The notes beneath the pieces are model-generated. The model ran no database searches. It was not told where the DNA came from and saw nothing but the letters and a program-made list of their open reading frames with translations. This document shows, piece by piece, positions 1,960-28,135 of a stretch of DNA of 28,460 bases. Position 1 is the first letter of the stretch. Every line of letters starts with the position of its first letter. The position numbers were made by a program, and so were the translations under genes. The stretch comes from Asterionella formosa (Eukaryota): the NCBI GenBank assembly GCA_002256025.1, contig NKIB01011255.1:62001-90460 (forward strand), in the 5' to 3' direction.

Positions 1960-3788
1960 TTACGTCGATTTTTTTGTAGGTTTTTTTTTTTTGGTAGGCA
2001 TTCTTGTTGGCATCGCAGATGGTCTGGATGTTGTAGGAGCAGGAGTGGGTGTAGGCTTCAAGGTGACTAAAGTTGCACCTGGGCAAGTTGAGCCCTGACT
2101 GTTTAAGCCAACTGAAAGGGTCACATACTTAGGGCTTGTTAAAGTGGCATTTACCATGTCACATGCTTCGATTCGGTAAGTGTCAATGACAATAAACTGC
2201 TTTGCTGAGAGTGATGCCACCATATTTGAAATCGACTTGGTGGTAGCGGCTGTTACAATCGTAATCATGTTTGCCTTTTCCTTTACTTGAAAGTTGGAAC
2301 CCTTGGCAAGATTGTACTGAATGAAATACAGATTGCCAACCACAATGAGAACATATTCGTTGCGACTTGTCGATGCCTGGGTATAGTCAATGAAGCCCAC
2401 AAGTTTGCCAGACCAGGCTCCATTTGATGCTGGATTAACAATTTTTTGCTTGTCCGCATACCAGCCAAGGACATAATTCTTGTGACCATTGAAGCACATG
2501 GCTGGATATCCACTGTAAGGGTAGCCGAAGCCCATAACACAGCTCTGGTCAGCATATTCATTGCCATCTTCACCTGAATGCTGGAGGCCTAAGTTATGTC
2601 TTCAGAAATCAATGAGAATGGTGAAAAATTATCAAGATAAAGATATGAATGAGACTTGGAAGACTCACCCTAGTTCGTGAATGTTGGCACTGAGACTGGC
2701 GCACCTCTCTGTGATAAGGATGCGAGAAATTTAAAACCGAGAAGTGTTGAGCGTTCAGTTTAAATACTTGAGTACATGCTTTTCAGTCAGAAGCTGCACG
2801 TACCATTGTTAAAGTATGAATATTGACCTGGTACATAGGCCCATGCTTGCCAATATTCGGAATTGGACCTTAGGGTACCATGGGGAATGCAAAACATGAT
2901 GTTGGAGAAAATACTGCCAAGCTCAGTAACACCGATTCCCAGTGCGCCCTTGACTCCAATTGTCAATGAGTTTTGGATGTCAGAGAAGTTTTTGTTATTG
3001 ATACTTGTGTTGAGTTGAAGCTCCATCACTCCATTTACGATCTTATTAGGAAATCCACTTGCTGCAACAAACGTTAGCTTCCCAGCCGAGCATGAGCTGT
3101 ACTGAGAGGCTACAGAGTACTGCTGACCTCCAGTACCGAAGGTACCATTTGCAAGGCTTGTCAAAGAGTTTGATTGTAATGAGTTAGGGGCTTTGACAAG
3201 GACGACAAGCAAAGATTTGATTCCAGTGGTCTGTACTACTAAGCGACGGTTACGATTGGCTCGACTTGCAACAAAGTGAATGTCAGCCTTTGGGGGAATA
3301 ATAATGTAGTCAGGTTCGCCAAACTCAGTACGAATGGCAGTACCACCCATGATGCAAATTGTAGACACACCAGAGTCCAGTGTTACCTTGTGTTCATTGA
3401 CAAAAGGTGTTGGAAGGTTGATAGAATACGACATTTCTGACTCTCCGTCACCCTCTTGAGACTGGTCAGTGAGACAGCAGTAACTTGAGACCCCCATACC
3501 GCCAGGTAACAAAACAGCAACAACTGAAACTTGACAGAAGAGACATTCGCCGCTTGCCACTTGAACTCCAGGAGATCCCTGTCATTGTAGTATGGATTAT
3601 AAGGAAATGGTTCAGCATGACTGTGGGGACAAGCAAGGCACAGTTCGCAAAATGCAATCCTACAATGAACGTATTTATTTATTGCGGATTTCAAGGATTG
3701 CAATAATCTTGTAACTTACACGTTGTCGTTTGCCATGAACGGTGGCTACAAGAATGAGTAATCCAGCTGAGAAGAATCTAGCAAGCAT
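1960..3788 (-). CDS. Secreted zinc metalloprotease, gametolysin/peptidase M11-like; 4 exons (3788-3720, 3578-2804, 2708-2669, 2599-1960), 507 aa
   Basis: Manual splicing across three GT-AG introns (141, 95, 69 nt) keeps one frame (1524 nt). The product has a signal peptide (MLARFFSAGLLILVATVHG), a basic RNRRL processing-like site, the metzincin motif HELGHNLGLQHSG followed by EYADQSCVMG (Met-turn), CFNGHKNYVLGWY, and a Pro/Thr-rich tail. Confidence 0.88.
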
Positions 3789-13028: not shown

Positions 13029-15198
13029 ATGGCATTTCACGGATTTAATGGAAAGGATCAGTCAAACAAGAAACAAGACTTAGTACTTTCATAGTTTACA
13101 CTACACGACTTTATGTTTTCGGAAAAGGAGATGAAGAAACTTATCAAATCAATCGAAGATTCCATTGAATACACTCAAAGATCAAATGAATTTGAACAGA
13201 TTCATAATACTCCAGAAGAATAAATGAAGTATGCCGATACAATAGTGGCTGAGATTGAAAAGAAGGAAAGATTGCTTTCGAAGAGGAAAACCAAACAGTT
13301 GGTCTTCACGGATGAAGACTCTATTCGTACAGAGTCACAGTTCCACCATCCATCGTCGTATTTTGCTTATTCACCTGAAATCTCTGAAAATGAAGAAGAA
13401 CTCAGTGATTCTCATTAATTTGATGAACAAATTCATGCGATGAATGATAATATCGGCGGAAATGTGGCAGACAACACTCCAGAAGTAGAAATGGTGAAAA
13501 GTTGCAAAACCAGGAAATATGTCTTACTATTCGTCCAGAACATCAAGATGACCATAATGAAAGCAGAGAAACTATTGCATTTCTAAAAGAAAAGATATTC
13601 AAGAAAAATTCGAGCTAGATCAAGTCCTCGAATTCAAGAAGATCAATTCAGACAGAGATGTGATGCTGGCTAAGGCAGTTGATGCTCTTATTAGGGAACG
13701 AAGTCAGAAACACAAAATTGAATCTTTTTCCAAATCATACGCGGAAGAAAAATAATTTCTTTGTAAAATCATTGAAAACAATCCAGAAGGCAGCTACTTT
13801 TGTGAAGAGTCCGCATGTGAAATGTGTAGAGTTGTTATGCCAAAGCAAATGGCATTTTCCTTGAGTTTGCCGAAATCGCATGGACAACTAAAATTGTGGA
13901 AAGAAATGTACACTCGTACCCCGCAAGATATATGCAATTACGCCTCTTTATTTTATGGAGTCAAAGGTATCAAAAAATCATCTTCAGATTTTAAAGATCT
14001 TGCATATTGGGACCTTGAAACAATAACCTCTATGATCCATTTTAAAATTCATGAACTTCATCCAAGTGATGTAAAGGTTATATTTGATCTGGATGAGAAC
14101 CCAGAAAAGGATAATAACAATCCATATATATACCAAGGTGATTGTCATCCACTTCATCACGAAAGAAACTATTTTATGTGCTAATTGCGTATTGCAAAAG
14201 ATCAGATGAGGAGGAAAACAATCATTTTGTGAATTATCTTTTTGCTATAAATGATGAATTATGTCAAGTCCGTGACCCAGGAAAAGATGCAAGTGTGGAT
14301 GAACATTATGATCAAGTATTTCACCTTTCCCATAAGTACTGCATCATCCCCGGATGCAGAAAAGAATTGGAATTGTTATGCACCGATACAGGATATCTTT
14401 CACAAGAATCCCATATACCTGAAGAAATTGGGTTCTCGGAATCTTTCTATAATGGCACCTAAGCACCATTGCAGATCAGTATGGCCACTGAACATGATTC
14501 CAAGTCATTTCAACCAGAAGATGACAGTGGATGGTCATGTTGACCTTTTACAATTGTGAAAGTGTTGGAAACTCTATTGCAATTAGAAAGGAATGGCAAA
14601 ACCAAATTTCTTGGCAAACGGGCACATTTACGTTTGGAGACTGAGTCCTGGAAAGCTTTAAAACGTCAGGTGGCAGCAACAGATCGAACCGACGATTTCT
14701 TATCCATTACATCTTACCAACCAACCAAGTCAACAAACTTTCATCTTGGAACAGTTTGGCCTCAAGTGACAAAGACAAATTCTCGTGAGGATATGCATGT
14801 TTCAGTTGGAAATAACTGTTCTTCAATTTTGTATCGACAAAATTTTGACATCCTATTTAGATTTAAAAATGTTGAACGAAGTATTTGGACGAGTTCCTTG
14901 CAACTATTCTTTCAAGAAGTATGAAGTTGTCTACGTAAAATCCATGATACAACAAAGTTATGACAAACTTGCTCCCTTCAAATGATATAATCATGCACCT
15001 CTTGGCCAAATTTCTGGATGCTTCAAAATTGACAAAAAGTTGAAAGAAAATTTTGTATCTGATGAAATCCCTTCTGGAATCAAATTGAAGAAGTTTGCAG
15101 ACTCATATCGAACTGCAGTTGAAAAGTCGAGAAGCAAAGTTTCGGACGAAACGAGAAGGACCATCTTAGGTTCTTTGGGAGTGAAAAGGAACAAATAA
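13029..15198 (+). pseudogene. Transposon accessory pseudogene with a Ulp1/SENP-like (peptidase C48-type) cysteine protease domain
   Basis: The frame of 14142-14924 reads through two stops: NNHFVNYLFAINDELCQVRDPG (His 14223, Asp 14274) ... FQPEDDSGWSC*PF (Cys 14538; TGA where Gly is expected). Upstream are YWDLETITSMIHF and a CEESACEMC cysteine cluster. Confidence 0.6.
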
Positions 15199-15316: not shown

Positions 15317-18300
15317 TCAACGTTCGCTTGTTAGTTTTTGGTCCCACCCGATTGATTTCCATAAATTACGTGGAGGCATGGCAACATAAAAATTATCTTT
15401 CCGTATCTGTTCTAAAACTTCTTGCGGTTTCAAAGCAGGAACAACAAATGCTGCCGAAAGTATGTTATGAAATTCAACAACGCTCATTTCTGTTGTATCA
15501 TTGCATAATGTGTCTCCTCTTGCAAAAAACATACGTTTATGAATTTTCATTCCAGTTGAACTTTTCAAGGAACGAATGCACGCTAAGAGAATGGTTGTTG
15601 TGTTGGAGAAAATAACATTTCCCCAAAGAAGTAGTTTTGTAGGAACTGTGTAGGAACTTGATCCATCTCCCTTCTTCCAGTTCACTTACACTTCGACCCA
15701 GTCAAACCATTCACGACCAGAGATTCCTGCCTTTGAATCATTATTCCATTTCGGATGGCATCTGAAAATAGTAGTTTGGCCGGGAACGCTACTTTCAATT
15801 TTAACATGATAATAAAAGTAAATCCTTACAATGGAAACAGACCCAACCCCATCTTCAAGACTTTTGATTCTTGCTATTTCTATTGCTGAATTCACATTGC
15901 TCTTTACGTAGTTGGCCCCCTTCTGTAAATCAAGATGAACCAATTGAGACAAGGGTTCATCCTTACTCCGTGATACATGCCCAATCTTATTAGGGACACC
16001 TGCTATAGTCCATAGACCATTTGATGATGAAGCAGAAAATTGAACTTTAACAGGAAGGGCTGGTGAATGGATTTTGGTAGGCGATATTCCAAAATTTTCA
16101 TGCGACCTACTAGGCAACATCATTGTATCCGGAATCATTCCTTCGAATTAAATTTCTGCTGAAATACTCTCATTTACATTGATGGTATTTTCTCTACTCA
16201 TCTTCTTTTGTTTATTTTCTGTATGTAATGAATCACTTACAAAAAAAATTTCGTGCCAAGGCAAACTGCCTTGTTTCATATGATTTTGTTAAAATGTCAT
16301 GCTTTAATCGATGTAATTGCCCGTTGACACGCTTACTGGGACGTTTCAATTTGTCTTTCAAAAAAGACTCCAAATATCCACCAAAGAAATTAAGAGGAGA
16401 TCCGAACTTCCTAATCAGATGAGGGTTATGTTTCATTCCATGAAATTTTGCCATTCGTAAGCCAATTTGAGATATCATTTCCTGTTGGGGACCAATCATA
16501 ATCTTAGTAAGTGACATAAATCTCTTCACCCTTTCCTCTAAAATATCAATACATGCTGATGTATATTGTGGTATAAATAAAGTGTCATTGATAGATATAC
16601 ATAACCATAACAGTAATGTGAAATCCTTTTCTGGGCGCATGTTCTCTGAACCCATCATTCCACCCATTGAAAAAATAGTTAACAGACATAATCCGGGAAT
16701 TTCTTGCCCTGACATTTTCGACAAAGCTGTCATCCCAGATCTGTATGACAATTTTGGAATATCACGATCGCTTTGCCTTGCTTTCCAAATGACTAGTGAT
16801 ATATCTAGCAGCCACTTTGTTTGAAGTATAGTTTCGAAAATACATTTCTGGTGCTGGTACAAGTGTTGGGTCTTGATTTTTGCCAGTGTAGATATTTTTG
16901 ATAACTGGTGCGTGTGTCCTTTTTGGTCTTTGCCCTTTTCTTTGGTTGCTCTTGATCAAGAAAAGCAGAGTCTGTTGTTTCAGTGATACATTTATGATCG
17001 GAGATGTTTTCTGGAATATCTGGAGATTTTCTTTCTTTAAAAAAACATGTCCATTCTTCAGGGATAGTCCCATAATTGTACAAAAATTCCAAAATGTACT
17101 TAAATATTCCAAGTAGTAATTGATGAAGAACCTCAAATGGAGTTACACCAAATAATCCTTCTAAGTCACCACCAAAAAAATGATTTATTAGTGCAGGCAT
17201 AATAGGATTATGCGATATAACACGGCACCACTCGTTTGCTGTTGCGTATTTGCCATTAGATTGGGAGACACAATACTCAGGTGGGATACATGGCAATTTT
17301 CTATCAGGATATGCATTTTTGTCAAGAAACTTGTGTAAAAACATTTTAACATCTGTCACTTTACAACGTTCACATCCAATATCAGGATTATCAGCATCCT
17401 CAGTTGAAACCAGGCAATCACGACAAACATATCGTCGATATAATCCATTACCACCCCTGAAGCCACAAATTTTATTGTGTTCTTCTGTATCACCAATGAT
17501 CAATCCAATCTGGAAATAAACTTTTGTCATACCAAGACCATGAACCAAAATATCGTATGACTTGTCTGGATGGCTCTTCGAAAGGCGACAATAGAAATCC
17601 TGTAACAGAAAGATATAATTTGAGTCTACATAAGGACAAGTTGTCACCAGATAACTTATTATTCATTTGTTTCTCCAGATCAATGACTTCAATGTCTGAC
17701 AAAAGAGATACTAATTGCCATCCATCAACTTTTTCCTTCCTTCTAACGTTAAGTTTAACATTGTCAGCAAAAGCGGATGCTCGGAATGTTTCATTTGTTT
17801 ATCAATAGGTGAACCATCACTGAAAACTGCTAGGGCAACAAATAAACACCATGTCTTCAACACTCCATTTCCTGATGCAGGAGAATTGTTGAATGCGTTT
17901 TTTCAAAGTCTGGTAAGATGGAGCTTGATACCTTCCATCAAAACATTTCATTGCTTTTGCCTTGAACAGCCATTTCATTTGATGATCAAAGTAAAGTGGT
18001 GGAAGTTATGTAATTCTCGTTGAGGAATAACATGAGTTCTAATTCAATTGGATGCATGTTCAGAGAATGTTTACTTGGAAGTTGAAATTGAGGAAGAAGG
18101 GGCATTTCCATTGCATTTTCAGGGAGAAAGCCGGTGAGATCTTGAAAATCTGAATGTTGCATGGTTTCTGAATTCAACCCATGGAGAGTTTTTAGTCTTA
18201 ATTGTTCGTCCTGTTGTGACTGAATATTGTTATAAACTGAATCGTCGCTGTCGTCATGAAGTGGATGATTGTGGTCACTTGATTCAAGGATAGGACACAT

Positions 18301-18700
18301 AATCTCTTCTTGTCTAATCTCCCTAAATGCTCAGCAGTTACACTGCCATCATTAACTTCTTTCCTTGAATGATTAGATGCACTACCGCAACACATAGTTT
18401 CACTATGTATTCCAGGAACTCGATGTTCCTGCATGCAATGTCGACAGTGACCATACTCGTTAAAAACACGGTTGCTACAATTTCGATTGTGATACTCAGA
18501 TGGGGATTTGTTCTTCCGAAATTTGTAGCTACACAGATAACACCATTGCAATGTGCGCAAAGACATTGCAAATTGCAAATGATGAACAAGTCAGGATATG
18601 AAAAGGATATAATGAAAATGAATTAAGATACCGACAGTATTTGCCACATGTCGCTTGTTTCCATGAACCTCTTTATGGTTTCTTGAAGACATTGTACTAC
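15317..18700 (-). pseudogene. Plavaka/CMC-like DDE transposase pseudogene
   Basis: Ordered motifs across frameshifts: LAVFSDGSPID...HPLLLTMLNL...GWQLV; IIGDTEEHNKICG...VCRDC; PFEVLHQLLLGIFKY; RQSDRDIP...SGQEIPG; KFHGMKH...KFGSPLNFFGGYLESFLK; FRCHPKW...EWFDWVEV.W. An N-terminal CYLC...H...C cluster is present; the 5' end is approximate. Confidence 0.8.
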
Positions 18701-19260: not shown

Positions 19261-20199
19261 CCCAGTATATCACTTACTACCTGCTACTGGTACTCTGTAT
19301 ATATATATGATATACTGTTTTTGTCATATGATGTATCGGTACACATGAAGAGCTCCTGCCCCAAAAAGGTGCTTAAACAATTTGCTACCAAAACCCTTGC
19401 GGTTATGACTTACACCAATTGAATGGTCTAAATAATTAGTTTCAACGGATGTAGAAAATATCGATGCAAACAAATTTCAGAAATAATACCGGTGCACGTA
19501 GTCGTGGAAAACAATGGACATATAGTGCATTGAGTATTTTCGAATTATGTATATGCAAGTATGATCATCTCAACCATATCAGATGTTCCGTATCAAGAGC
19601 GCCTTTGAATTTCATAAATGTATTACACTTCATATATACCTATATATTTACAAATTTTATTATTATATTCATGGCATATATATTTTTGAAATCGTTCTGT
19701 CATGTCAACAAACAATGCCTGCTGCTTCATGAAAAGATAGGTCGTAGTAAAGCACATGACAAGAAAAGAAAGTTTACGCAATACATAACAAAAAACATTG
19801 TGGCTTCGACACATTGCGCCTTCGAATGATGGAGAATGTTTAAGGCAATGAAGCCATCAATGTGGTACTTGGATGACAGTCGTTGGGAGGCAGGCAGCAC
19901 AACAACAAATTGTTAACTAAACGCACATTTCCTTTTTTCTCAGTTGATTCAACAGCTCGTTTCGCTTGTTGGGGAGCACCAATGTAAAACAAAACCAAAT
20001 TGCGTAAGTGTTCTTGTCGCTCGTTGGACCTATTCACTTCTGTTGGAAAAAAAATGACAAAACCTTTACCTTCTCTCAAAGTTGAGCTGACAAAAATGAA
20101 CTGGTAAGTTTCATTCGACAACATTGGATACCAGAAACATACTCATTCAAGAATTTACTGACAAGTTACTATTACAGACTTATGCATCAGTTGCATTGA

Positions 20200-22450
20200 T
20201 GTGTTGTAAGTGACGCAAGAGGATGCGATGGAATTGCGTGTTCTTGTGTCAATGTAACATGAGTAGCTAACAAATCATTCCTTCTCATTGTTACTGTAAC
20301 TGCATGCATAGGAAAATAAAAACAATCTAACAACGGAATAGTCGGCAAGTTCAGAATGACACTTACAGCAGGGAAAGAGACGCAGCATCAGTAAGGCACT
20401 TCCTTGCACAGGATTCAGAAAAGAGGAAGAAAAGGGTGAGACAGTAACAATATACATTGAGCCGAGTAGAGAGAGAAACGTTGGGTCGCTGGCATGTAGA
20501 TTAATAGAGAGCATTGCTTAATTTGATAGTTAAATTACGATCAATTTCAATCTATTTTTTACATTGCTTGTGATGAGAATTATGATCATGTTTACGATAG
20601 ATTTAGGAAGAAAAAATTCACATGAAAGCATAGAGTTGAGCTGGTTTTAGGATATGTTGTAGTTATGGTTATGTCATTCCCCTAACCCTAGAAAACAATT
20701 TTTCAGCGATATCATTGACTTCATTCAGGAACAACAAGAAATGAAACAAAAAATTCTCCTGATGATGGACGCAAATGAAAATATAACAATGGATTCAAAG
20801 GGGATAGTCACAATAATCCATGAATGCTCTCTGTTCAATTTAATGGGGGACCTGCATCCAACAAATTCTACACTGGTTATATATGACAGTGGCAACAGAA
20901 CAATCAACCAAATATTTGACAGTTCCCACGTGGGAAATTCGATGACAAGAGGGGATGCACTTCCGTTCTACCATCTTATCCAAGCAGACCACAGAACACT
21001 CTACATAGACTTTGACGCCAGACATCTTTTTGGTGGATCACAAGAAGATGGCCCTTCATCAAGACACAGATCCTTGATATCCACAAACCCCAAGGAACTA
21101 AAAAATTATCTCACAGAAGTAAAGGAGTATTGGAGGGAACATCACATACTCAAGAGGATTATCTCTCTGGCCTGCATGCCCGCACAAAAAAGCAATGAAG
21201 AAACCTCGTGGCAAGCAAGCATGGTCAAAGAAGTTACAGGCAAGACTGTATGCATATCAATACTGGAAGAAGCGCCTCAAATTAAGTCAATACCCAGCAC
21301 CGCAGGGGAATAACCAGGATGAATTTTAAAATTGATTAACACAGGGAAAACAATGAGCATGAATATCTCAGCCAGTATCGAAGTTATTACGATATGAGCT
21401 GCCGCAATCAGGTAGACAGATCATATCTATCACGCATGGGTTTCAACAAGGTGACATTAAAAAGTTTTTGGATAGCCATGGGAGATTTTGTAATACCCGA
21501 AAATATCAGCACAATTGTAAAACATTTATTGAAGGGAAAGGTGGTCTTAGCTTCAGAAGGGTCCTTAGTATCAGCAAATAAGAGTGCTACTAATGGGTAG
21601 AAAATACACTACAGAAAAACGAAAACTAAAACCTGTAGCCACAGATGGGCAACTGGTGGAGGTCAGGAAATGTCAACACTATGTCCTGAAATTCGGAGGG
21701 GAGGGGGCTTACTTGGAGGAATAGCAGCCACAGTACATATTTTACAGTTGATGCCAAGAGTTTCTATTCTGCAGCACCAGATTCAATTACCAGTGTAGCG
21801 CTCATTTCTTGGATCAGGAAATGGATTCACAGCGGTCCCTCTCGAAAACTCCATACAGATTTTGATCTACTACAGGTGACAATGAAATTGGAAGATAGAT
21901 ATAATATCGATTTAATACCAGGACATGTCAAGGCACACCAAAACAATGATTGCGTATGCAAGGACTTGTCATGGAAGGCTAAACTAAACTGCAACTGTGA
22001 TCATCAAGCAGCAATGGTGTGGTCTTGTCCAAGATGTATTGGCTCCACAGCACAGGCATATCAGCTACCTCCAGGACATTGTTCCGCATCTTTACAAATA
22101 GGAGCTTCTGTTGTGACTGCGAACTTACCAATGGCGATTTGCAAAGCAGCATACCACGAAGACATGGAGAATTATGTTATTCAAAAACAGGGTGGGATAC
22201 ACATGAAATTTATGACATGATGGATTGGTAAGCTAGATGTTAGACAAGCGAAGAAACACTTGGAGGATCACGGAAAATGATGGTATTAAATTGGAATTTA
22301 ATTTGTTGGCAACATTTTGACACTGGATTAAATATGAGAAGAGTTTGGATAACAGATGTTTTCAGTGTAAGCACCTTAATGAGGACATCAATCATGTGAT
22401 CATTGGCCTGGCAACTAAATAAGCGCAAGATGAGTTGCTGAAACATGTAA
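20200..22450 (+). mobile_element. Non-LTR retrotransposon (LINE, Ambal-like) ORF2 remnant: AP endonuclease, RNase H, CCHC-like knuckle; no RT recognisable
   Basis: Endonuclease motifs TLGRW, ILLMMDANE, YDSGNRTINQIF, ADHRTLYIDFD. RNase H motifs VLASEGS and GHVKAHQN...LSWKAKLNCNCDHQA. Then TGWDTHEIYDMMDW and RCFQCKHLNEDINHV (22354-22398). Confidence 0.8.
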
Positions 22451-23007
22451 TGGAGTCAGCTATTATGGGACCATCAGTCAAGTCTCTCAAAACTCTGAAA
22501 GCCTGAAGGGATGCTCACCCAACTCAATGCTGTCGTTGTAGCAACAACAAATGGGTATTGAGTTGCAACTGTGTCCTAATATTCTCTGCGCTCGGTTGAC
22601 TATTTCCAAAGTGGAGCTAGTTGAACAAGATTTGGCTACAATCTGCTGTCGTCTTTCATATGAAGTTTTCATGCTATCAAGTCAAAAGACAGTCTATGCA
22701 TTTACATGTCGTACACTCATCAGTTGAATATTACTTAAACATTTGTTGATTCTTTATGGCCATCACTTTTTCATTGATCCTACCAACTTTGCTTTGGGTT
22801 CAAATACAAGGGGACCAGATGTATGGATGTATGTTATAGATGGCCTTAGAGATCATACAATGTAAATCAACTCATATTGGACAAGCACATCACATAAATC
22901 ATTTTTAATTAAATTAGAATGAGATAACAAGAGTTGAAGAACAAAAAGACATTTTTCTTTCTTTCCCAGATAAGGCAAATCATGTCTTTTAAAAGTTTTT
23001 GGATCAT

Positions 23008-25452
23008 CTACAACTCATCACTACTTTTTCTCTCCTTTTTCTTTCCATCTGGAGGATTGGCCAGCAACACTTTGTCATAAGTGCCTTGTCTTGTTTCTTC
23101 AGACTCCTCAACTGAAATGTGCTCAGGAGGCCGACCAGAAAGAAATTGTGTCCAGGCTGCCATGAGCCCAGTCTCAAAATTTCGAACATACCTGGGGACA
23201 TCCCAGTAAGGGTGCATTGGATTTCTTTGTAGAGCGGTTGCAATAAGCTTGTTTCGAATGGCATTGTACAATGCAGGGTCATTAGCAACTTCAATAGCTA
23301 TGTCTTCATATTGCTTTGGCCCATTGTATGCATTGAGTTGTTCAAGTCCCAGCACAAGGTTCGCAGAAGTTGTCACACGGGATGACATATCATCTCCATC
23401 ACTGCGAGTGATAATTGGAACACCACCGTAAAGTGAATCTTGGGCAGTTGTGTGACCATTGTATGGATACGAGTCAAGCATGAGGGTGCAGAAATCTTGA
23501 TTTCGCATCTGGTGATCAAATGGGTTCATTTGCCAGGGCAAGAAATGAATTCTAGTGTTTAACTCATCACCATCTCCTGCTTCAAAGCTCACTTCATCTA
23601 TGTTGCCTCTGGAAGTGCCAGCTGCCTCGTGGATAAATTTGCGCATGTAAGCAACTCCAACATCTGGATTTTCCAACAAGCAAAGCATGCTGTTGGGAAC
23701 CTCGCGCAAAATGCGTATCCAAGATCGGATGGTTTCAGGGTTGTTCTTGAGGAATTTATTGAAATTGCAAAAGACAACTGATGGCTTACTGGGTCCCTTT
23801 CCAGCGGGGGCCATGCAGCGATTGGTCTGTGGGCTGCCAGTACCTGGATTATATGGGGTTTCCTTTGGTGTGTATTCATAGGTAGGCTGTTTCACCTCCT
23901 TTTGCATAGCGTGGCCCTTAGAGAAAAAGTGGTTTGGCATCCAAATGAGCTTTTCTGTGTACAATTTGTCGAGATGAGGAGGAGAGGTCACATTGTCGGA
24001 AAATATATAATCAACATACAAAGCACCAGAAGTTCCCAGATACTCTTGATGCCAAACCTGAATGGGGGCAGGGCGAAGTGAAAAAAGCCCCTGGGCTCGC
24101 TCTCCTTGTCTTGCATATCCGTCCCATTCCAATAAAATATGAATATTTTGGCTTTTGATGAACCGAGCCAATGAAATATGATCAGTCTTGTACCTTTGTG
24201 CATCATGAAAGTAATCAACATTGGCCTTAACTCGCTCCCTCCAATCCACCCCTCTCATGCCGTGTTCAATAAACATAGGGTTATCAGGTGCACCCATAGA
24301 AAATATGTGTACTTCAAAGGTATTTTTATCAAAAAATCGAAATATATCGTGAGACAAGTACAGCACAGCCTTGGAGTTGAAGCCACTAGAGACAAAACCA
24401 ATCTTTAGTTTGAATCCAGACTCCTTCGACTCTGCTATATATTCCGAGAGATGATCGTTTGGTTTAAAGGGAAGATCGTGTGGAAGATCTTTCATTGTCC
24501 CCGTGTGAATGTCCACACGAGACATCTTGTCCTCCATAAATGCTGCGGACTCTGCCACATAGCGTTTCAACATGGGGTCCACAGGATATCCCAACATCAT
24601 ATGAGGATGCGGTGACGTGGCTCGCTTCCAATGGAAGCTCCCATCTTGAGAGACGACGCGGAATTGATCGGTTTCCAATTCGACAATCTTTGCGATACGC
24701 TCCATGTCAGCATCGAATTGAGTACCGTTGAAGCCCCAATCAATAATCATGTTGCGACAATATACTGCATTGGTACAGGACGGTCCAATACGCATATTTG
24801 ACTTTTGACAGGATACTTCAAACGAATCCGCGCACTTTTCATAAGATTTCTCAGAAAACGATGCGGATCCCGCTGCATAGAGTTCTTCGGGTGTCCCCTT
24901 GAAATCAGCACCCCAGGGATATTTTTTGTCAACGGCCTCGTCCTCAATGTCTTGGCCTGCATTATCATCTGTGACGCTTCCCTTCAAAGCGTCTAGATTT
25001 TTGCCTAATCCCATGGAATCCAAATTTTCTTGCAACGTCCAAGCGTCTTCATGGTCAGGTTGCAGTTGAAGCGCTTGTTTCAGATACTGCTTGCCCATGT
25101 CAATCTGGCCTCTTTGAATGCTCTCTTGGGCTATGTATACAAAGCCATCTACTAACTTGCCTTGGGCCGCCCAGCATTGCATAAAGGATTGAAATATGCC
25201 TTCCACTCCATATTCCTTGGAGGTTCCTTTATATTTCTCCTGGACCAAGACGGCTCTCCAGAAATGCATGGCGGCTCTATCAAATTGCTGTTCGGCAAGA
25301 AGTCTGTTTCCTTCCTCAATGTTTTTGTGCCCATCCGCCGGATCTATCTTGGTAGAAAAGTCGAGTGAAATAGCAGCATCCACAAGATAGACACTCGCTG
25401 CTGCAGCAACAGCAACAAAGATCCAAGCGACCTGAACCCAGAAACGCTGCAT
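23008..25452 (-). CDS. TPR-containing GT41 family glycosyltransferase (OGT/SEC/SPY-related) with signal peptide and C-terminal SDEL; 814 aa from the ATG at 25452
   Basis: Uninterrupted ORF. TPR-like helices (YLKQALQLQPDHEDAW) precede GT41 motifs KIGFVSS, LRPAPIQV, VDYIFSD, YTEKLIWMP, VFCNFNKFLK, LDSYPYNGHTT...GVPIIT, SRV. The N-terminus is hydrophobic (MQRFWVQVAWIFVAVAAAASVYLVDA) and the protein ends KSSDEL. The ORF-track start at 25488 is a GTG. Confidence 0.92.
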   Translation of the reverse strand: MQRFWVQVAWIFVAVAAAASVYLVDAAISLDFSTKIDPADGHKNIEEGNRLLAEQQFDRAAMHFWRAVLVQEKYKGTSKEYGVEGIFQSFMQCWAAQGKLVDGFVYIAQESIQRGQIDMGKQYLKQALQLQPDHEDAWTLQENLDSMGLGKNLDALKGSVTDDNAGQDIEDEAVDKKYPWGADFKGTPEELYAAGSASFSEKSYEKCADSFEVSCQKSNMRIGPSCTNAVYCRNMIIDWGFNGTQFDADMERIAKIVELETDQFRVVSQDGSFHWKRATSPHPHMMLGYPVDPMLKRYVAESAAFMEDKMSRVDIHTGTMKDLPHDLPFKPNDHLSEYIAESKESGFKLKIGFVSSGFNSKAVLYLSHDIFRFFDKNTFEVHIFSMGAPDNPMFIEHGMRGVDWRERVKANVDYFHDAQRYKTDHISLARFIKSQNIHILLEWDGYARQGERAQGLFSLRPAPIQVWHQEYLGTSGALYVDYIFSDNVTSPPHLDKLYTEKLIWMPNHFFSKGHAMQKEVKQPTYEYTPKETPYNPGTGSPQTNRCMAPAGKGPSKPSVVFCNFNKFLKNNPETIRSWIRILREVPNSMLCLLENPDVGVAYMRKFIHEAAGTSRGNIDEVSFEAGDGDELNTRIHFLPWQMNPFDHQMRNQDFCTLMLDSYPYNGHTTAQDSLYGGVPIITRSDGDDMSSRVTTSANLVLGLEQLNAYNGPKQYEDIAIEVANDPALYNAIRNKLIATALQRNPMHPYWDVPRYVRNFETGLMAAWTQFLSGRPPEHISVEESEETRQGTYDKVLLANPPDGKKKERKSSDEL

Positions 25453-25702
25453 TTTGTTGTTGTAGTAGTTGTTAGTAGGAGATCTCACTTCACTGGAACT
25501 CCAAAATGCACAGTAGTATCAGCTGTTGCAACGATGAAGGCGTATGCGACAGGCGGATTGATGAGTATTGTCAAGATGACGAACCGCGTTTTATGTCTCG
25601 ATGGGCGGGGAGGAAGCGCGACGGACGAAATGATATACCGGCAAGTCAACGCGAAACCATGACTGGACAGGTAGATACATACCAGTTTATGTTGGTGTGC
25701 CC

Positions 25703-25920
25703 ACCTGGTACCCTGGAACCTGGTACCCTGGAACCTGGTACCTGGTACACTGGTACCAGGTACTTCCCTCTATCAGGGTGCCGGTACTAAATAAACAATT
25801 CAATATAGGATAAATAAAGCTAAACCTTTAGCTCCAGGACAATTACCGTAACTTGCAGGGTCCCAGGTACCGGTACTTGGAGTACCAAGGTACCTGGTAC
25901 TTGTACCAGGTACATACCAG
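25703..25920. repeat. GGTACC/CCTGGTAC-rich cluster including a 15-bp tandem ACCTGGTACCCTGGA x2
   Basis: Exact units at 25703-25717 and 25718-25732, followed by many GGTAC/GTACC words up to 25920. Confidence 0.85.
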
Positions 25921-26327
25921 CAAGTTGCGGTCATTTTGCCGAAAATGGAACGAGGCGCCGGCAAGCACTCAAAATCGACTCTCCGGTAATATTACTTAGA
26001 CATTTTGAAAATACTAACGGTTTCGCGCTGGCCAGATAATTTCATTATTATCAAAATCTAAAAATTTTGAAGAATGTTTTTCTGGAAAAACCAGTTTCCG
26101 AACTTTGCTACCTGTACGATTTTGGCTTTTGGATTGGGGGAATGAGTTTGACCCTAAACTAGTTCCTTCCAAATCGAATTCTAGCATAATAGTATTCAAA
26201 ACGATTATGCAAGGAATGAAAGATAACCGTTATCCGAGGTAGCCAGATCAAATATTTTAGTATTGGATCTACAGGCGTGTGTATCCGAGATGTCCAAATC
26301 GTCATTTCGGCAATTTTAGCGCACTTG
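25921..26327. mobile_element. MITE (non-autonomous DNA transposon), 407 bp, imperfect ~30-bp TIRs, 3-bp CAG target-site duplication
   Basis: Left end CAAGTTGCGGTCATTTTGCCGAAAATGGAACGA versus reverse complement of the right end CAAGTGCGCTAAAATTGCCGAAATGACGA. CAG flanks both sides (25918-25920 and 26328-26330). The interior is AT-rich with no credible coding sequence. Confidence 0.7.
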
Positions 26328-26797: not shown

Positions 26798-28135
26798 ATG
26801 TTGGTTCGAATCCGAAACAATGTGGGCCAATGGAGAATTCACATCGACCCCGCCGCCACCGTTTCCGACTTGCTGGCCAAAATCGCCGAAACCCGTCCCA
26901 ATGTCGTCTACGAAAAACCCCTCTCCAGCGATCCCGCGTGTTCGTATCCTCTCGATCTTCACAGAACGCTTCAAGAGCAAGGCATGGACCACGGAGGGAT
27001 GATTCATTGTCGTGTCGATCCAGCCACGTGTGCCGAGTCGTCAGCGGCGGAAGCAGACAAAGCGACTAACATGAGGCGCATTATTGCCAAGGACGGCTCG
27101 GTGCATATGGTGCATTCGTCGGAGTCAGACAATAGAGGCTTTCGCAAAGGACAGCTTCCGCTTCGAGATATGAAGATGCAATGGACCCTAAATGATTTTA
27201 TCGCGCTAGACAGCCAATATGAATTCAAGATCCAGCGACAGGAGGAAGCCGTATGCAAAGGAGTGTCCTTGGATAGCGCAAGTGTAGATGGATTTCAAAC
27301 GTATCTCCGGCGGTTTCAGTTCTCACGACAGCGATGCGGATTTCTGTACGGTCGATTCACAGATGACGATACCAAAGTCGTGGTGGAAGCCATTTACGAG
27401 CCTCCTCAACGACCCGACCCGGATGCCCCTGAAGGCTTCCACTTGCTGGACGACGACAAGGAAGATCAAGTCGAACAGCTCGCATCGCTCTTAGGCCTCC
27501 ACAGGGTGGGGTGGATTTTTGGTCATCCACCACGAGCCAAGGGATTTTCGTTCTCTGCACATGAAATCATCTTGGCAGCAGAGTTTCAGCTTCATGCTGC
27601 GGATGGTGTGAACAAGACGCCGTTTGTGACAATCAAGGTCACATTAAACGACCAGGGTCACGTGGAAGTTGACGCATTTCAAGTATCACAGCAGTGTATG
27701 GAAATGGTGGCGGAAGAAGCCTTGGAAGTCGGAGACAATAGGGGATTTCTAGTTGTTAATGATACCTTCACTGCAATTCAAGAAGGAAAGGCTGCAAAGG
27801 AACTGGCTCCGGAATTCTTCTTAACGACTGTTCCTATTATTCAACATCAATCACAAGTCTTTGTATCGACATTTCCCAGGGTCAATAGGGACATGGACGA
27901 ACGATCGCCGTCAAAGGACGCGCTCAAGAAGCAACTATCAAAAAGTGGAAAGTCTGGTTGGACTTTTTGCGACTTACTGGCGGACTTCAATTTATTGATT
28001 TTTCTTTGCGACTTTATGGACTTGGCGACAGATATGCCGAAGATTTGCGAGTCTATTGTGAATAGAGAAGTTCTGTTGAATGATGGGTACAAGTTGATTA
28101 TTGCAGGTCTGGCCGGAATGGATAGGGCATATTAG
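26798..28135 (+). CDS. NPL4: NPL4-like Cdc48/p97 cofactor (N-terminal ubiquitin-like domain + MPN-like NPL4 domain), 445 aa
   Basis: MLVRIRNNVGQWRI ubiquitin-like N-terminus, then QRCGFLYG, VVVEAIYEPPQ, LGLHRVGWIF, FVTIKV...AFQVSQQC, FPRVNR and LADFNLLIFL, all typical of NPL4. Intact intronless ORF. Confidence 0.93.
   Translation: MLVRIRNNVGQWRIHIDPAATVSDLLAKIAETRPNVVYEKPLSSDPACSYPLDLHRTLQEQGMDHGGMIHCRVDPATCAESSAAEADKATNMRRIIAKDGSVHMVHSSESDNRGFRKGQLPLRDMKMQWTLNDFIALDSQYEFKIQRQEEAVCKGVSLDSASVDGFQTYLRRFQFSRQRCGFLYGRFTDDDTKVVVEAIYEPPQRPDPDAPEGFHLLDDDKEDQVEQLASLLGLHRVGWIFGHPPRAKGFSFSAHEIILAAEFQLHAADGVNKTPFVTIKVTLNDQGHVEVDAFQVSQQCMEMVAEEALEVGDNRGFLVVNDTFTAIQEGKAAKELAPEFFLTTVPIIQHQSQVFVSTFPRVNRDMDERSPSKDALKKQLSKSGKSGWTFCDLLADFNLLIFLCDFMDLATDMPKICESIVNREVLLNDGYKLIIAGLAGMDRAY

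Follow-up and report, generated by a model that had tools for sequence, protein, structure and literature searches.

The window analyzed here is a 28,460-nucleotide stretch of the Asterionella formosa genome (contig NKIB01011255.1, positions 62,001 to 90,460 of the forward strand). [quoted passage not shown] The gene is an intronless open reading frame (ORF) that starts with an ATG at 25452 and specifies 814 amino acids; its extent and the coordinates of its features are collected in Table 1. The first residues of the 814-amino-acid product are MQRFWVQVAWIFVAVAAAASVYLVDAAISLDF. At the level of its two ends, the protein starts with MQRFWVQVAWIFVAVAAAASVYLVDA, followed by AISLDF after a predicted cleavage point, and finishes with KSSDEL directly before the stop codon.

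The gene is expressed, and its mRNA is unspliced and begins translation at the AUG at 25452. The RNA evidence comes from three studies and consists of contigs of poly(A) libraries, which cannot fix the exact transcript ends. Contig X3 is colinear with the window over its full 2679 nt (22890..25568) with 0 differences, X5 is colinear over 2638 nt (22938..25575) with 1 difference, and X1 is colinear in two parts (22888..25408 and 25379..25595). No splice joints occur in the alignments of these three contigs to the window. The 5′ contig ends fall at 25568, 25575, and 25595 and the 3′ ends at 22888–22890, and in one contig a 10-nt stretch of T continues past 22890, which we interpret as the poly(A) tail of an RNA from the minus strand. 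Since the contigs are colinear, the first AUG is that at 25452 (no ATG occurs on the minus strand within 25453–25595), and an in-frame TGA lies upstream of it at 25519–25521, there is no upstream exon that would alter the N-terminus, a possibility that the initial annotation had wanted checked. A public protein (P0002, listed at 100% identity, 825 amino acids) is nearly the same as the window product; it reads NNYYYNK rather than NNYYNNK upstream of the start methionine and RKSDEL rather than RKSSDEL at its tail, and is likely an allele or strain variant.

Membership in GT41, as originally assigned, is borne out by profile, fold, and the catalytic lysine, with a modeled two-lobe GT-B architecture of the OGT/XcOGT type. 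Pfam PF13844 (Glyco_transf_41) matches the protein in two stretches at E 3.5e-60 (204.2 bits versus a cut-off of 25). At E values up to 1, the only Pfam matches are this model and those for tetratricopeptide repeats (TPRs); the GT61 domain of EOGT is absent. Among PDB sequences, the best matches are human OGT (E 3.5e-49) and Drosophila OGT (1.7e-44), followed by XcOGT (2e-33), Arabidopsis SPY (1.5e-20), and Thermobaculum OGT (7e-18), and no match to NGT/HMW1C appears at E ≤0.01. The AlphaFold model (mean pLDDT 91.3, pTM 0.79) was generated from a 105-row alignment, made up of 95 M-initiated sequences of 760–900 residues (query included) from the first 121 proteins and 10 distant relatives from 149 representatives. 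Foldseek ranks human OGT first against this model (E 1.5e-35). VIA-align gives its highest score to XcOGT (Z 37.9, rmsd 2.2 Å, 475 of 479 residues), with Drosophila OGT (Z 35.6), human OGT (Z ~35, rmsd 2.5–3.0 Å, ~548 residues), Thermobaculum OGT (Z 33.1), and SPY (Z ~32) next in order; NGT/HMW1C structures, at Z 23.6–24.7 and 12–14% identity, fall well under the OGT-type matches. The ESM Atlas returned bacterial GT41/TPR clusters only (0.96–0.97), which supports family membership and nothing beyond it.

Two structural descriptions in the initial annotation, “a few TPRs” and a “complete” GT41 catalytic region, hold in part. In the AlphaFold model, three helix hairpins (41–53/57–69, 83–96/100–113, and 117–130/135–147) precede the catalytic region and, together with helices 188–264, match the final TPRs of OGT and XcOGT when the structures are superposed. 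Four Pfam TPR models match residues 105–139, all of them below their cut-offs (best 17.5 bits versus 23.5). No asparagine conserved in at least 90% of the alignment lies N-terminal of N544, and the helical domain lacks a conserved Asn ladder. As for the catalytic region, model and alignment show both Rossmann-like lobes as well as the residues that bind the nucleotide, with H282-P-H284-M285, G357, and K361 all located in the 188–516 region, but the insert is reduced and four acceptor-side residues are replaced. The match to human OGT runs in two stretches (query residues 227–516 and 550–780), and the segment between them amounts to ~120 residues in OGT (chain 711–832), presumably its intervening domain, versus 33 in the query.

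The two ends of the protein carry predicted signals for the ER lumen. Residues 6–24 form the only hydrophobic segment, averaging 2.14 over 19 residues on the Kyte-Doolittle scale, and they lie in an isolated helix of the AlphaFold model (residues 2–23) that runs into a low-confidence stretch (23–29). From the sequence we infer cleavage after VDA26 (VDA/AISL). A second membrane-spanning segment is absent, the next best 19-mer in the protein scoring 0.79 and the model being globular. Both the hydrophobic start with its cleavage-like context and the SDEL end had been noticed originally, and both stand. With regard to alternative destinations, the residue at +1 of the predicted cleavage site is Ala; diatom plastid import requires F, W, Y, or L at this position, according to a passage of PMC2173943. 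An effect of such a C-terminal signal in one diatom species is described in part of PMC3503769, where a C-terminal DDEL retains an antibody in the ER of Phaeodactylum tricornutum and its removal leads to secretion.

Conservation of these signals was assessed in homologues. At E ≤1e-10, 346 proteins were retrieved by a word-indexed search, and the homologue counts refer to the best 120 of the 346, with 50–100% identity. Organism names are attached to seven (Seminavis, two from Nitzschia, two from Cylindrotheca, Attheya, and Epithemia). A lineage look-up places Attheya and Seminavis in Bacillariophyta, and Nitzschia, Cylindrotheca, and Epithemia are likewise diatoms. Among all 120, 69 end in xDEL (28 HDEL, 14 SDEL, 7 NDEL, 6 RDEL, 6 KDEL, and others), 10 in xEEL, and 10 in another -EL sequence, while 31 have none of these. 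A hydrophobic 10-mer (mean ≥2.2 within the first 75 residues) occurs in 94, and 66 have both a hydrophobic start and an -EL-type end. When only complete gene models are considered, the proportions rise to 93/102 N-complete models with the hydrophobic segment and 89/112 C-complete models with an -EL end (the same 69 DEL, 10 EEL, and 10 other). The orthologue comparison proposed in the initial annotation shows the signals to be conserved in most sequences, the remaining 9/102 and 23/112 lacking the respective signal. The hydrophobic segments of orthologues resemble short, typical signal peptides, with small residues immediately before the conserved mature start. The distance from the hydrophobic core to the first conserved mature residue has a median of only 19 residues, so there is no space for a transit peptide.

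The mature protein is also well conserved. Among 121 aligned sequences, 173 positions are at least 97% identical, which is consistent with purifying selection on an enzyme. One N-glycosylation sequon, at N242, is widely retained (Table 1), and a second, at N487, is retained in 4/121. Each of the nine query cysteines is retained as Cys in no fewer than 101/119 homologues. Three of them (C546, C591, and C655) are clade-specific, with C591 replacing a Trp and C655 an Ala of both other GT41 groups; this pair of replacements would fit a new disulfide. A subgroup of the diatom clade (P0012, P0017, P0019, P0022, P0030, and the Seminavis protein P0031) has a conserved insertion, NKMNFGMG(I/L/V)GVEHYLD, right after the signal peptide, which suggests paralogous forms within diatoms.

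The relationship of these proteins to other GT41 enzymes was examined with a tree of catalytic units. A profile of the catalytic region (query residues 270–790) extracted 488 units from 388 proteins, of which 172 were kept: those of every fourth of the first 121 proteins, the best unit of every sixth protein longer than 1400 residues, and the best unit of each of the others. The tree (FastTree, LG + gamma, 394 columns, 0 rows lost at trimming) was midpoint-rooted. It answers in part the call for a GT41 phylogeny: the proteins with signal-peptide-like and xDEL features fall into one clade, and no named SPY or SEC sequences are included; P0350 and the fungal P0369 formed no catalytic unit and were left out. 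P0350 had been tried as a canonical OGT of diatoms and was rejected, since at 68–70% identity to animal OGT it is most likely an animal protein.

The clade carrying the signals comprises 58 tips with support 1.0 (0.954 without the basal P0205). Within it, 38 units come from proteins with a hydrophobic N-terminus and 40 from proteins with an -EL end (31 DEL and 4 EEL among them), compared with 8 and 1, respectively, among the 114 units outside, where neither DEL nor EEL occurs. The xDEL end is not a chance feature, given 69/120 homologues versus 0/114 outside GT41 units. The query belongs to a subfamily of 42 tips (support 1.0). A second subfamily of 12 tips (support 0.97), around P0147, shares 33–37% identity with the diatom sequences and likewise has signal-peptide-like starts with SDEL, SEEL, VDEL, GDEL, or ADEL ends. 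A search with P0205, which is distant but bears a signal peptide, gave 27 matches, none of them close and one with an informative name, Phaeothamnion, so that the known taxonomic range was not extended. The sister grouping of the clade consists of animal OGTs and a Phaeothamnion protein (31 tips, support 0.985), and the remaining 83 units look bacterial. By sequence, the luminal clade is monophyletic, its named members are all diatoms, and it forms an old subfamily of its own, whose join to the OGT clade is weak (support 0.75), rather than a simply relocated OGT or SPY, as had at first been supposed. The prediction of a GT41 addressed to the ER lumen has itself gained from the comparison, as both signals are co-conserved in the monophyletic clade and, taken together, are absent from other GT41 units. 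Localization in the ER lumen is a prediction, well supported by this comparative evidence.

As a separate observation, the sequence collection contains long proteins (2000–3855 amino acids) with TPR-rich N-termini and 3–9 GT41 catalytic stretches each, including P0128–P0130, P0137, P0146, P0152, P0251, and others. They look bacterial, and their units group with bacterial GT41s in the tree.

Active-site residues of the clade were compared with those of OGT, using crystal-structure numbering for OGT, ungapped motif alignments to human OGT, and an offset of 10 between crystal numbering and chain positions that we assume, and that fits K842 and the cited papers. Counts refer to the 58 luminal units, the 31 of the OGT clade, and the 83 others (Table 1). 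Equivalents of K842, H920, T921, and D925 are conserved. The spacing of H647...R650 resembles that of H901...R904 in OGT, given a one-residue deletion; HMMER instead pairs Q648 with H901. OGT activity is abolished by K842M, K898A, and H901A, as reported in a portion of PMC4840301, which also describes D554A and H558A as weakening Ser/Thr glycosylation, with a more severe effect in the double mutant.

The acceptor side is different. At the positions of H498, D554, H558, and Q839, the luminal proteins have Met, Gly (or Ser or Asn), Lys, and Lys. Sections of PMC9715652 list H498, H558, Y841, and D554 as former candidates for the catalytic base, with the alpha-phosphate now favored, and give L439, D491, H495, and A664 as the SPY equivalents. 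SPY thus has L439 and A664 at the H498 and Y841 positions, where the query has M285 and L568. The clade is nonetheless not SPY-like because the D/H pair is missing. A further difference from OGT lies at C917, a position suggested to determine how large a sugar fits the pocket; it is Y744 in SPY, Y463 in XcOGT, Y419 in TtOGT, and F517 in HMW1C. According to the same sections of PMC9715652, the gate Tyr clashes with GlcNAc plus acceptor in SPY, and O-GlcNAc activity is low or absent in XcOGT and TtOGT, both of which have the Tyr. The luminal clade has Tyr at this gate throughout, which suggests a donor sugar smaller than GlcNAc, about as large as glucose, galactose, xylose, or fucose.

On this basis, the protein is probably a soluble GT41 that resides in the ER lumen and whose transferred sugar is smaller than GlcNAc. 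Its N-terminus would act as a signal peptide for co-translational import and be cleaved after VDA26. The protein would then fold in the lumen, where it is probably N-glycosylated at N242 and where the clade-specific cysteines may form disulfides. Molecules that escape to the Golgi would be retrieved by the KDEL receptor via SDEL. The C-terminal lobe would bind a nucleotide sugar, as in other GT41 enzymes, and a single sugar would be passed to an extended polypeptide lying between the catalytic lobes and the helical domain, with the Tyr gate implying a donor below GlcNAc in size. The acceptors would be proteins in transit through the ER.

Several observations weigh against this explanation. The hydrophobic core is long (19–21 residues at the Kyte-Doolittle mean given above), and an uncleaved signal anchor could fit it. 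Signals are lacking in 23/112 C-complete models (no -EL end) and 9/102 N-complete models (no hydrophobic segment); some of these exceptions may be poor gene models and others secreted or Golgi forms. Nine cysteines in the mature protein is an odd number. Organism names on only 7/120 homologues limit the taxonomic range that can be given for the clade, and its join to the OGT clade is weak in a tree that is midpoint-rooted. Finally, the D554/H558 pair is absent from the luminal clade, and a weak enzyme or a non-enzyme is therefore possible.

One alternative is a genuine luminal O-GlcNAc transferase, in which unchanged OGT chemistry (UDP-GlcNAc to Ser/Thr) would operate in the ER, making it the GT41 equivalent of EOGT in animals. 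The human and Drosophila enzymes are the best PDB sequence matches, the clade groups with the OGT clade, albeit at 0.75, and the K842, H920, T921, and D925 equivalents are conserved, all of which speaks for such an enzyme. The gate speaks otherwise, being Tyr in 58/58 luminal units versus Cys in 29/31 of the OGT clade, and this is the residue described in part of PMC9715652 as clashing with GlcNAc and acceptor in SPY and as accompanying little or no O-GlcNAc activity in XcOGT and TtOGT. The H498, D554, H558, and Q839 equivalents are M, G/S/N, K, and K, and the helical domain has no conserved Asn ladder. Luminal O-GlcNAc activity is unlikely because of the gate Tyr and the loss of both the D554/H558 pair and H498, and the OGT/SPY-equivalent chemistry implied by the original description is not upheld.

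The same losses could instead mean that a GT41-fold protein has given up its transferase activity and serves as a non-catalytic ER resident that binds peptides or nucleotide sugars, for example, during folding or quality control. Co-chaperones often contain TPR-like domains. Mutation of D554 or H558 weakens Ser/Thr glycosylation by OGT (PMC4840301, in part), and non-catalytic roles have been reported for OGT itself. Such a role is rather improbable, however, as the 58 units show little or no variation at the essential K569 and at the phosphate- and nucleotide-binding H667, T668, and D672, and SPY is active although it too lacks H498 and Y841 (a section of PMC9715652). Moreover, the replacements are fixed rather than drifting (K361 57/58, K566 57/58, and M285 54/58). 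Since they are fixed to specific residues, they suggest a site that has been retooled rather than one that has decayed.

A third alternative keeps the protein in the secretory pathway but not as a soluble ER resident: it could be a type II signal-anchored enzyme of the ER or Golgi, or be secreted, possibly acting on cell-wall or extracellular polymers. The long hydrophobic core and the C-complete homologues without -EL would suit such a form, as would three precedents: GT41s counted in oomycete secretomes (a table in PMC4316629), brown-algal GT41s considered candidate polysaccharide fucosyltransferases (in part of PMC11468063), and a signal-peptide-bearing pelagophyte GT41 grouped with cell-wall modification genes (PMC11375080). 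It is nevertheless improbable for the query, which ends in -EL like 89/112 C-complete homologues, an end of the xDEL kind being able to keep cargo in the ER of one diatom (PMC3503769, in part); the signal peptides of orthologues, moreover, are short and typical, with small residues before the conserved mature N-terminus. In a signal-anchored form, the catalytic domain would still face the lumen.

That both ends lack a targeting role and the enzyme is cytosolic, nuclear, or plastidic would agree with the nucleocytoplasmic location of all characterized eukaryotic GT41s (as stated in parts of PMC9715652 and PMC8724618) and with the luminal targeting of the clade being a prediction, but is very improbable given that the signals are co-conserved and clade-restricted (DEL ends in 0/114 outside units), that there is no upstream exon or start, no extension of transit-peptide length, and no F/W/Y/L at +1, and that the N242 sequon and clade-specific cysteines are conserved.

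A broader proposal, possible but more tentative than the soluble luminal enzyme itself, is that the clade constitutes an undescribed secretory-pathway glycosylation system. In this proposal, a GT41 lineage would have moved into the ER lumen and had its acceptor side retooled (Lys361, Lys566, Met285, and Tyr664 for His, Gln, His, and Cys), and it would now place a non-GlcNAc monosaccharide onto extended stretches, rich in Ser/Thr, of proteins that pass through the ER. The diatom ER is continuous with the outermost plastid compartment. If the proposal is true, acceptors in diatoms could be, among others, precursors in the chloroplast ER that are bound for the plastid, or cell-wall proteins rich in Ser, and diatoms, possibly along with other ochrophytes, would gain a protein modification that has so far lacked a proposed enzyme. 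GT41 is the textbook family of nucleocytoplasmic glycosylation (OGT, SEC, and SPY), and an ER-lumen clade would mean that its fold has also been recruited for the secretory pathway. The Tyr gate and the Lys-for-His replacement would amount to a natural experiment on GT41 donor and acceptor specificity, and there is a practical bearing on recombinant glycoproteins produced in diatoms. Such a system would surprise glycobiologists, though less so in view of how diverse ochrophyte GT41s are already known to be.

Table 1. Features of the GT41 gene and its surroundings in the window, with the conservation of active-site residues by tree group
Feature	Window coordinates	Strand	Basis or details
mRNA extent	22888..25595	minus	~116–143 nt 5′ untranslated region, coding sequence, ~118 nt 3′ untranslated region; unspliced
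Coding sequence	23008..25452	minus	814 codons plus TAG stop (23008–23010)
In-frame TGA, 5′ untranslated region	25519..25521	minus	translation; excludes an N-terminal extension
Predicted signal peptide, residues 1–26	25375..25452	minus	n-region MQR, hydrophobic core 4–24, V at -3, A at -1, A at +1
TPR-like helical domain, residues 41–147	25012..25332	minus	AlphaFold: three helix hairpins
Acidic, poorly conserved linker, residues 151–186	24895..25002	minus	pLDDT <50 at 151–176
Connector helices and N-terminal catalytic lobe, residues 188–516	23905..24891	minus	compared with human OGT chain 467–710
Sequon N242-G-T	24721..24729	minus	retained in 113/120 aligned homologues
33-residue loop, residues 517–549	23806..23904	minus	site of the long inserted domain in human OGT; contains C546
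C-terminal catalytic lobe, residues 550–781	23110..23805	minus	aligned to OGT chain 833–1037
Nucleotide-sugar binding residues N565, K569, H647/R650, H667, T668, D672	in C-terminal lobe 23110..23805	minus	by alignment
C-terminal SDEL, predicted KDEL-receptor retrieval signal	23011..23022	minus	sequence and homologue conservation
K569 (OGT K842)			luminal K 58/58; OGT clade K 31/31; other K 81/83
H667 (OGT H920)			luminal H 58/58; OGT clade H 31/31; other H 54/83
T668 (OGT T921)			luminal T 58/58; OGT clade T 31/31; other T 64/83
D672 (OGT D925)			luminal D 51, E 7; OGT clade D 31/31; other D 67/83
M285 (OGT H498)			luminal M 54/58; OGT clade H 26/31; other not aligned
G357 (OGT D554)			luminal G 37, S 9, N 6; OGT clade D 31/31; other D 74/83
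K361 (OGT H558)	24370..24372	minus	luminal K 57/58; OGT clade H 31/31; other H 79/83
K566 (OGT Q839)			luminal K 57/58; OGT clade Q 31/31; other N 36, Q 17
Y664 (OGT C917, SPY Y744), donor-size gate	23461..23463	minus	luminal Y 58/58; OGT clade C 29/31; other Y 53/83
Intergenic tandem array	25703–25763		units of the ACCTGGT type, 8.3 copies at a period of 7; periods 15 and 22 as well
NPL4-family ORF	26798–28135	plus	445 amino acids; PF05021, E 8.5e-29
Nine ORFs without a Pfam match	1960–3497, 13822–14184, 15686–17530, 18198–18566, 19464–19829, 20741–21313

The surroundings of the gene were surveyed as well. Its divergent neighbor, ~1.3 kb upstream of the GT41 start, encodes a protein with an NPL4-family domain. 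NPL4 is a cofactor of Cdc48/p97 in ER-associated degradation, and the adjacency of the two genes may be a coincidence. The intergenic region holds a tandem array, with similar GGTACC-rich stretches up to ~25950 and near 26263–26323. Many unrelated RNA contigs touch the array, their ends loose at either side, which is what a dispersed short repeat with transcription at other sites would produce. Nine further ORFs in the window (120–241 amino acids) gave no Pfam match; three on the minus strand at 15686–17530 could be exons of one gene. Scans of the window for tRNAs and Rfam families found none.

Previous reports of GT41 proteins bearing signal peptides are few and brief. They include the counts in the oomycete secretome table (PMC4316629, in part) and the single pelagophyte gene mentioned above, which was differentially expressed and labeled “peptide N-beta-glucosyltransferase” (PMC11375080). 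For brown algae, parts of PMC11468063 describe approximately ten GT41 genes per genome and many GT41 orthologous groups with homologues in all ochrophytes. The donor sites of these proteins are said there to favor UDP-sugars, and groups far from GlcNAc-transferring enzymes “could indicate new activities”. The luminal clade probably corresponds to one or more of these groups. Because the terms “signal peptide”, “transmembrane”, and “endoplasmic reticulum” are absent from the main text of PMC11468063, neither luminal targeting nor the active-site replacements appear to be described in it. GT41 is otherwise presented as nucleocytoplasmic (in parts of PMC8724618, PMC9715652, and PMC11853108), and no published description of an ER-luminal GT41, or of a GT41 linked with KDEL, was found in the literature.

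With respect to characterized enzymes, OGT and SEC resemble the query in having a two-lobe GT-B fold after TPR-type helices and a catalytic Lys with an H-T-T...D motif, and the OGT clade is the nearest in the tree, with weak support. OGT has 11–13 TPRs. The query, in contrast, has ~3 TPR-like hairpins, no conserved Asn ladder, and no long inter-lobe insert, and it is predicted to be luminal, whereas OGT and SEC are cytosolic or nuclear. A long TPR superhelix with an asparagine ladder is a feature of OGT (mentioned in PMC9715652). In addition, H498, D554, H558, Q839, and C917 of OGT become M, G, K, K, and Y. By sequence and model, the query departs from the OGT/SEC type in its gate residue, D/H pair, H498, and long TPR ladder.

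SPY, the O-fucosyltransferase of plants and protists, shares with the query the GT41 fold, the gate Tyr, and residues other than His and Tyr at the H498 and Y841 positions. SPY has 11 TPRs. It differs in retaining D491/H495 where the query has G357/K361, in being nucleocytoplasmic, and in its much weaker sequence match (E 1.5e-20 versus 3.5e-49 for OGT); by sequence, the D/H pair and this distance set the query apart from the SPY type.

The bacterial XcOGT is closer in architecture, being compact (short TPR, no inserted domain) like the query. XcOGT is cytoplasmic. Its sequence similarity to the query is below that of animal OGT (E 2e-33), and bacterial GT41 units, unlike the query, retain the D/H pair (D 74/83, H 79/83). 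It shares the gate Tyr (Y463 according to PMC9715652) and is not known to have a signal peptide or xDEL end. The Pasteurellaceae cytoplasmic N-glucosyltransferases HMW1C/NGT belong to the same CAZy family and are structurally more distant, and they have a bulky aromatic gate (F517) with a UDP-hexose donor, according to part of PMC9715652.

HMW1C/NGT proteins lack a TPR domain. In its predicted logistics, the query resembles a set of enzymes outside GT41, namely EOGT (GT61), POFUT1 (GT65), POGLUT1 (GT90), and UGGT (GT24), which are soluble ER glycosyltransferases with a signal peptide and a KDEL-like end. These enzymes act on folded EGF or TSR modules or on glycoproteins that are misfolded. The likeness would extend to a cleaved signal peptide, a soluble luminal domain, KDEL-type retrieval, and the addition of a single sugar, and the ER localization of POFUTs is noted in a section of PMC9715652. 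These families are nevertheless unrelated to GT41, the family to which the Asterionella protein belongs.

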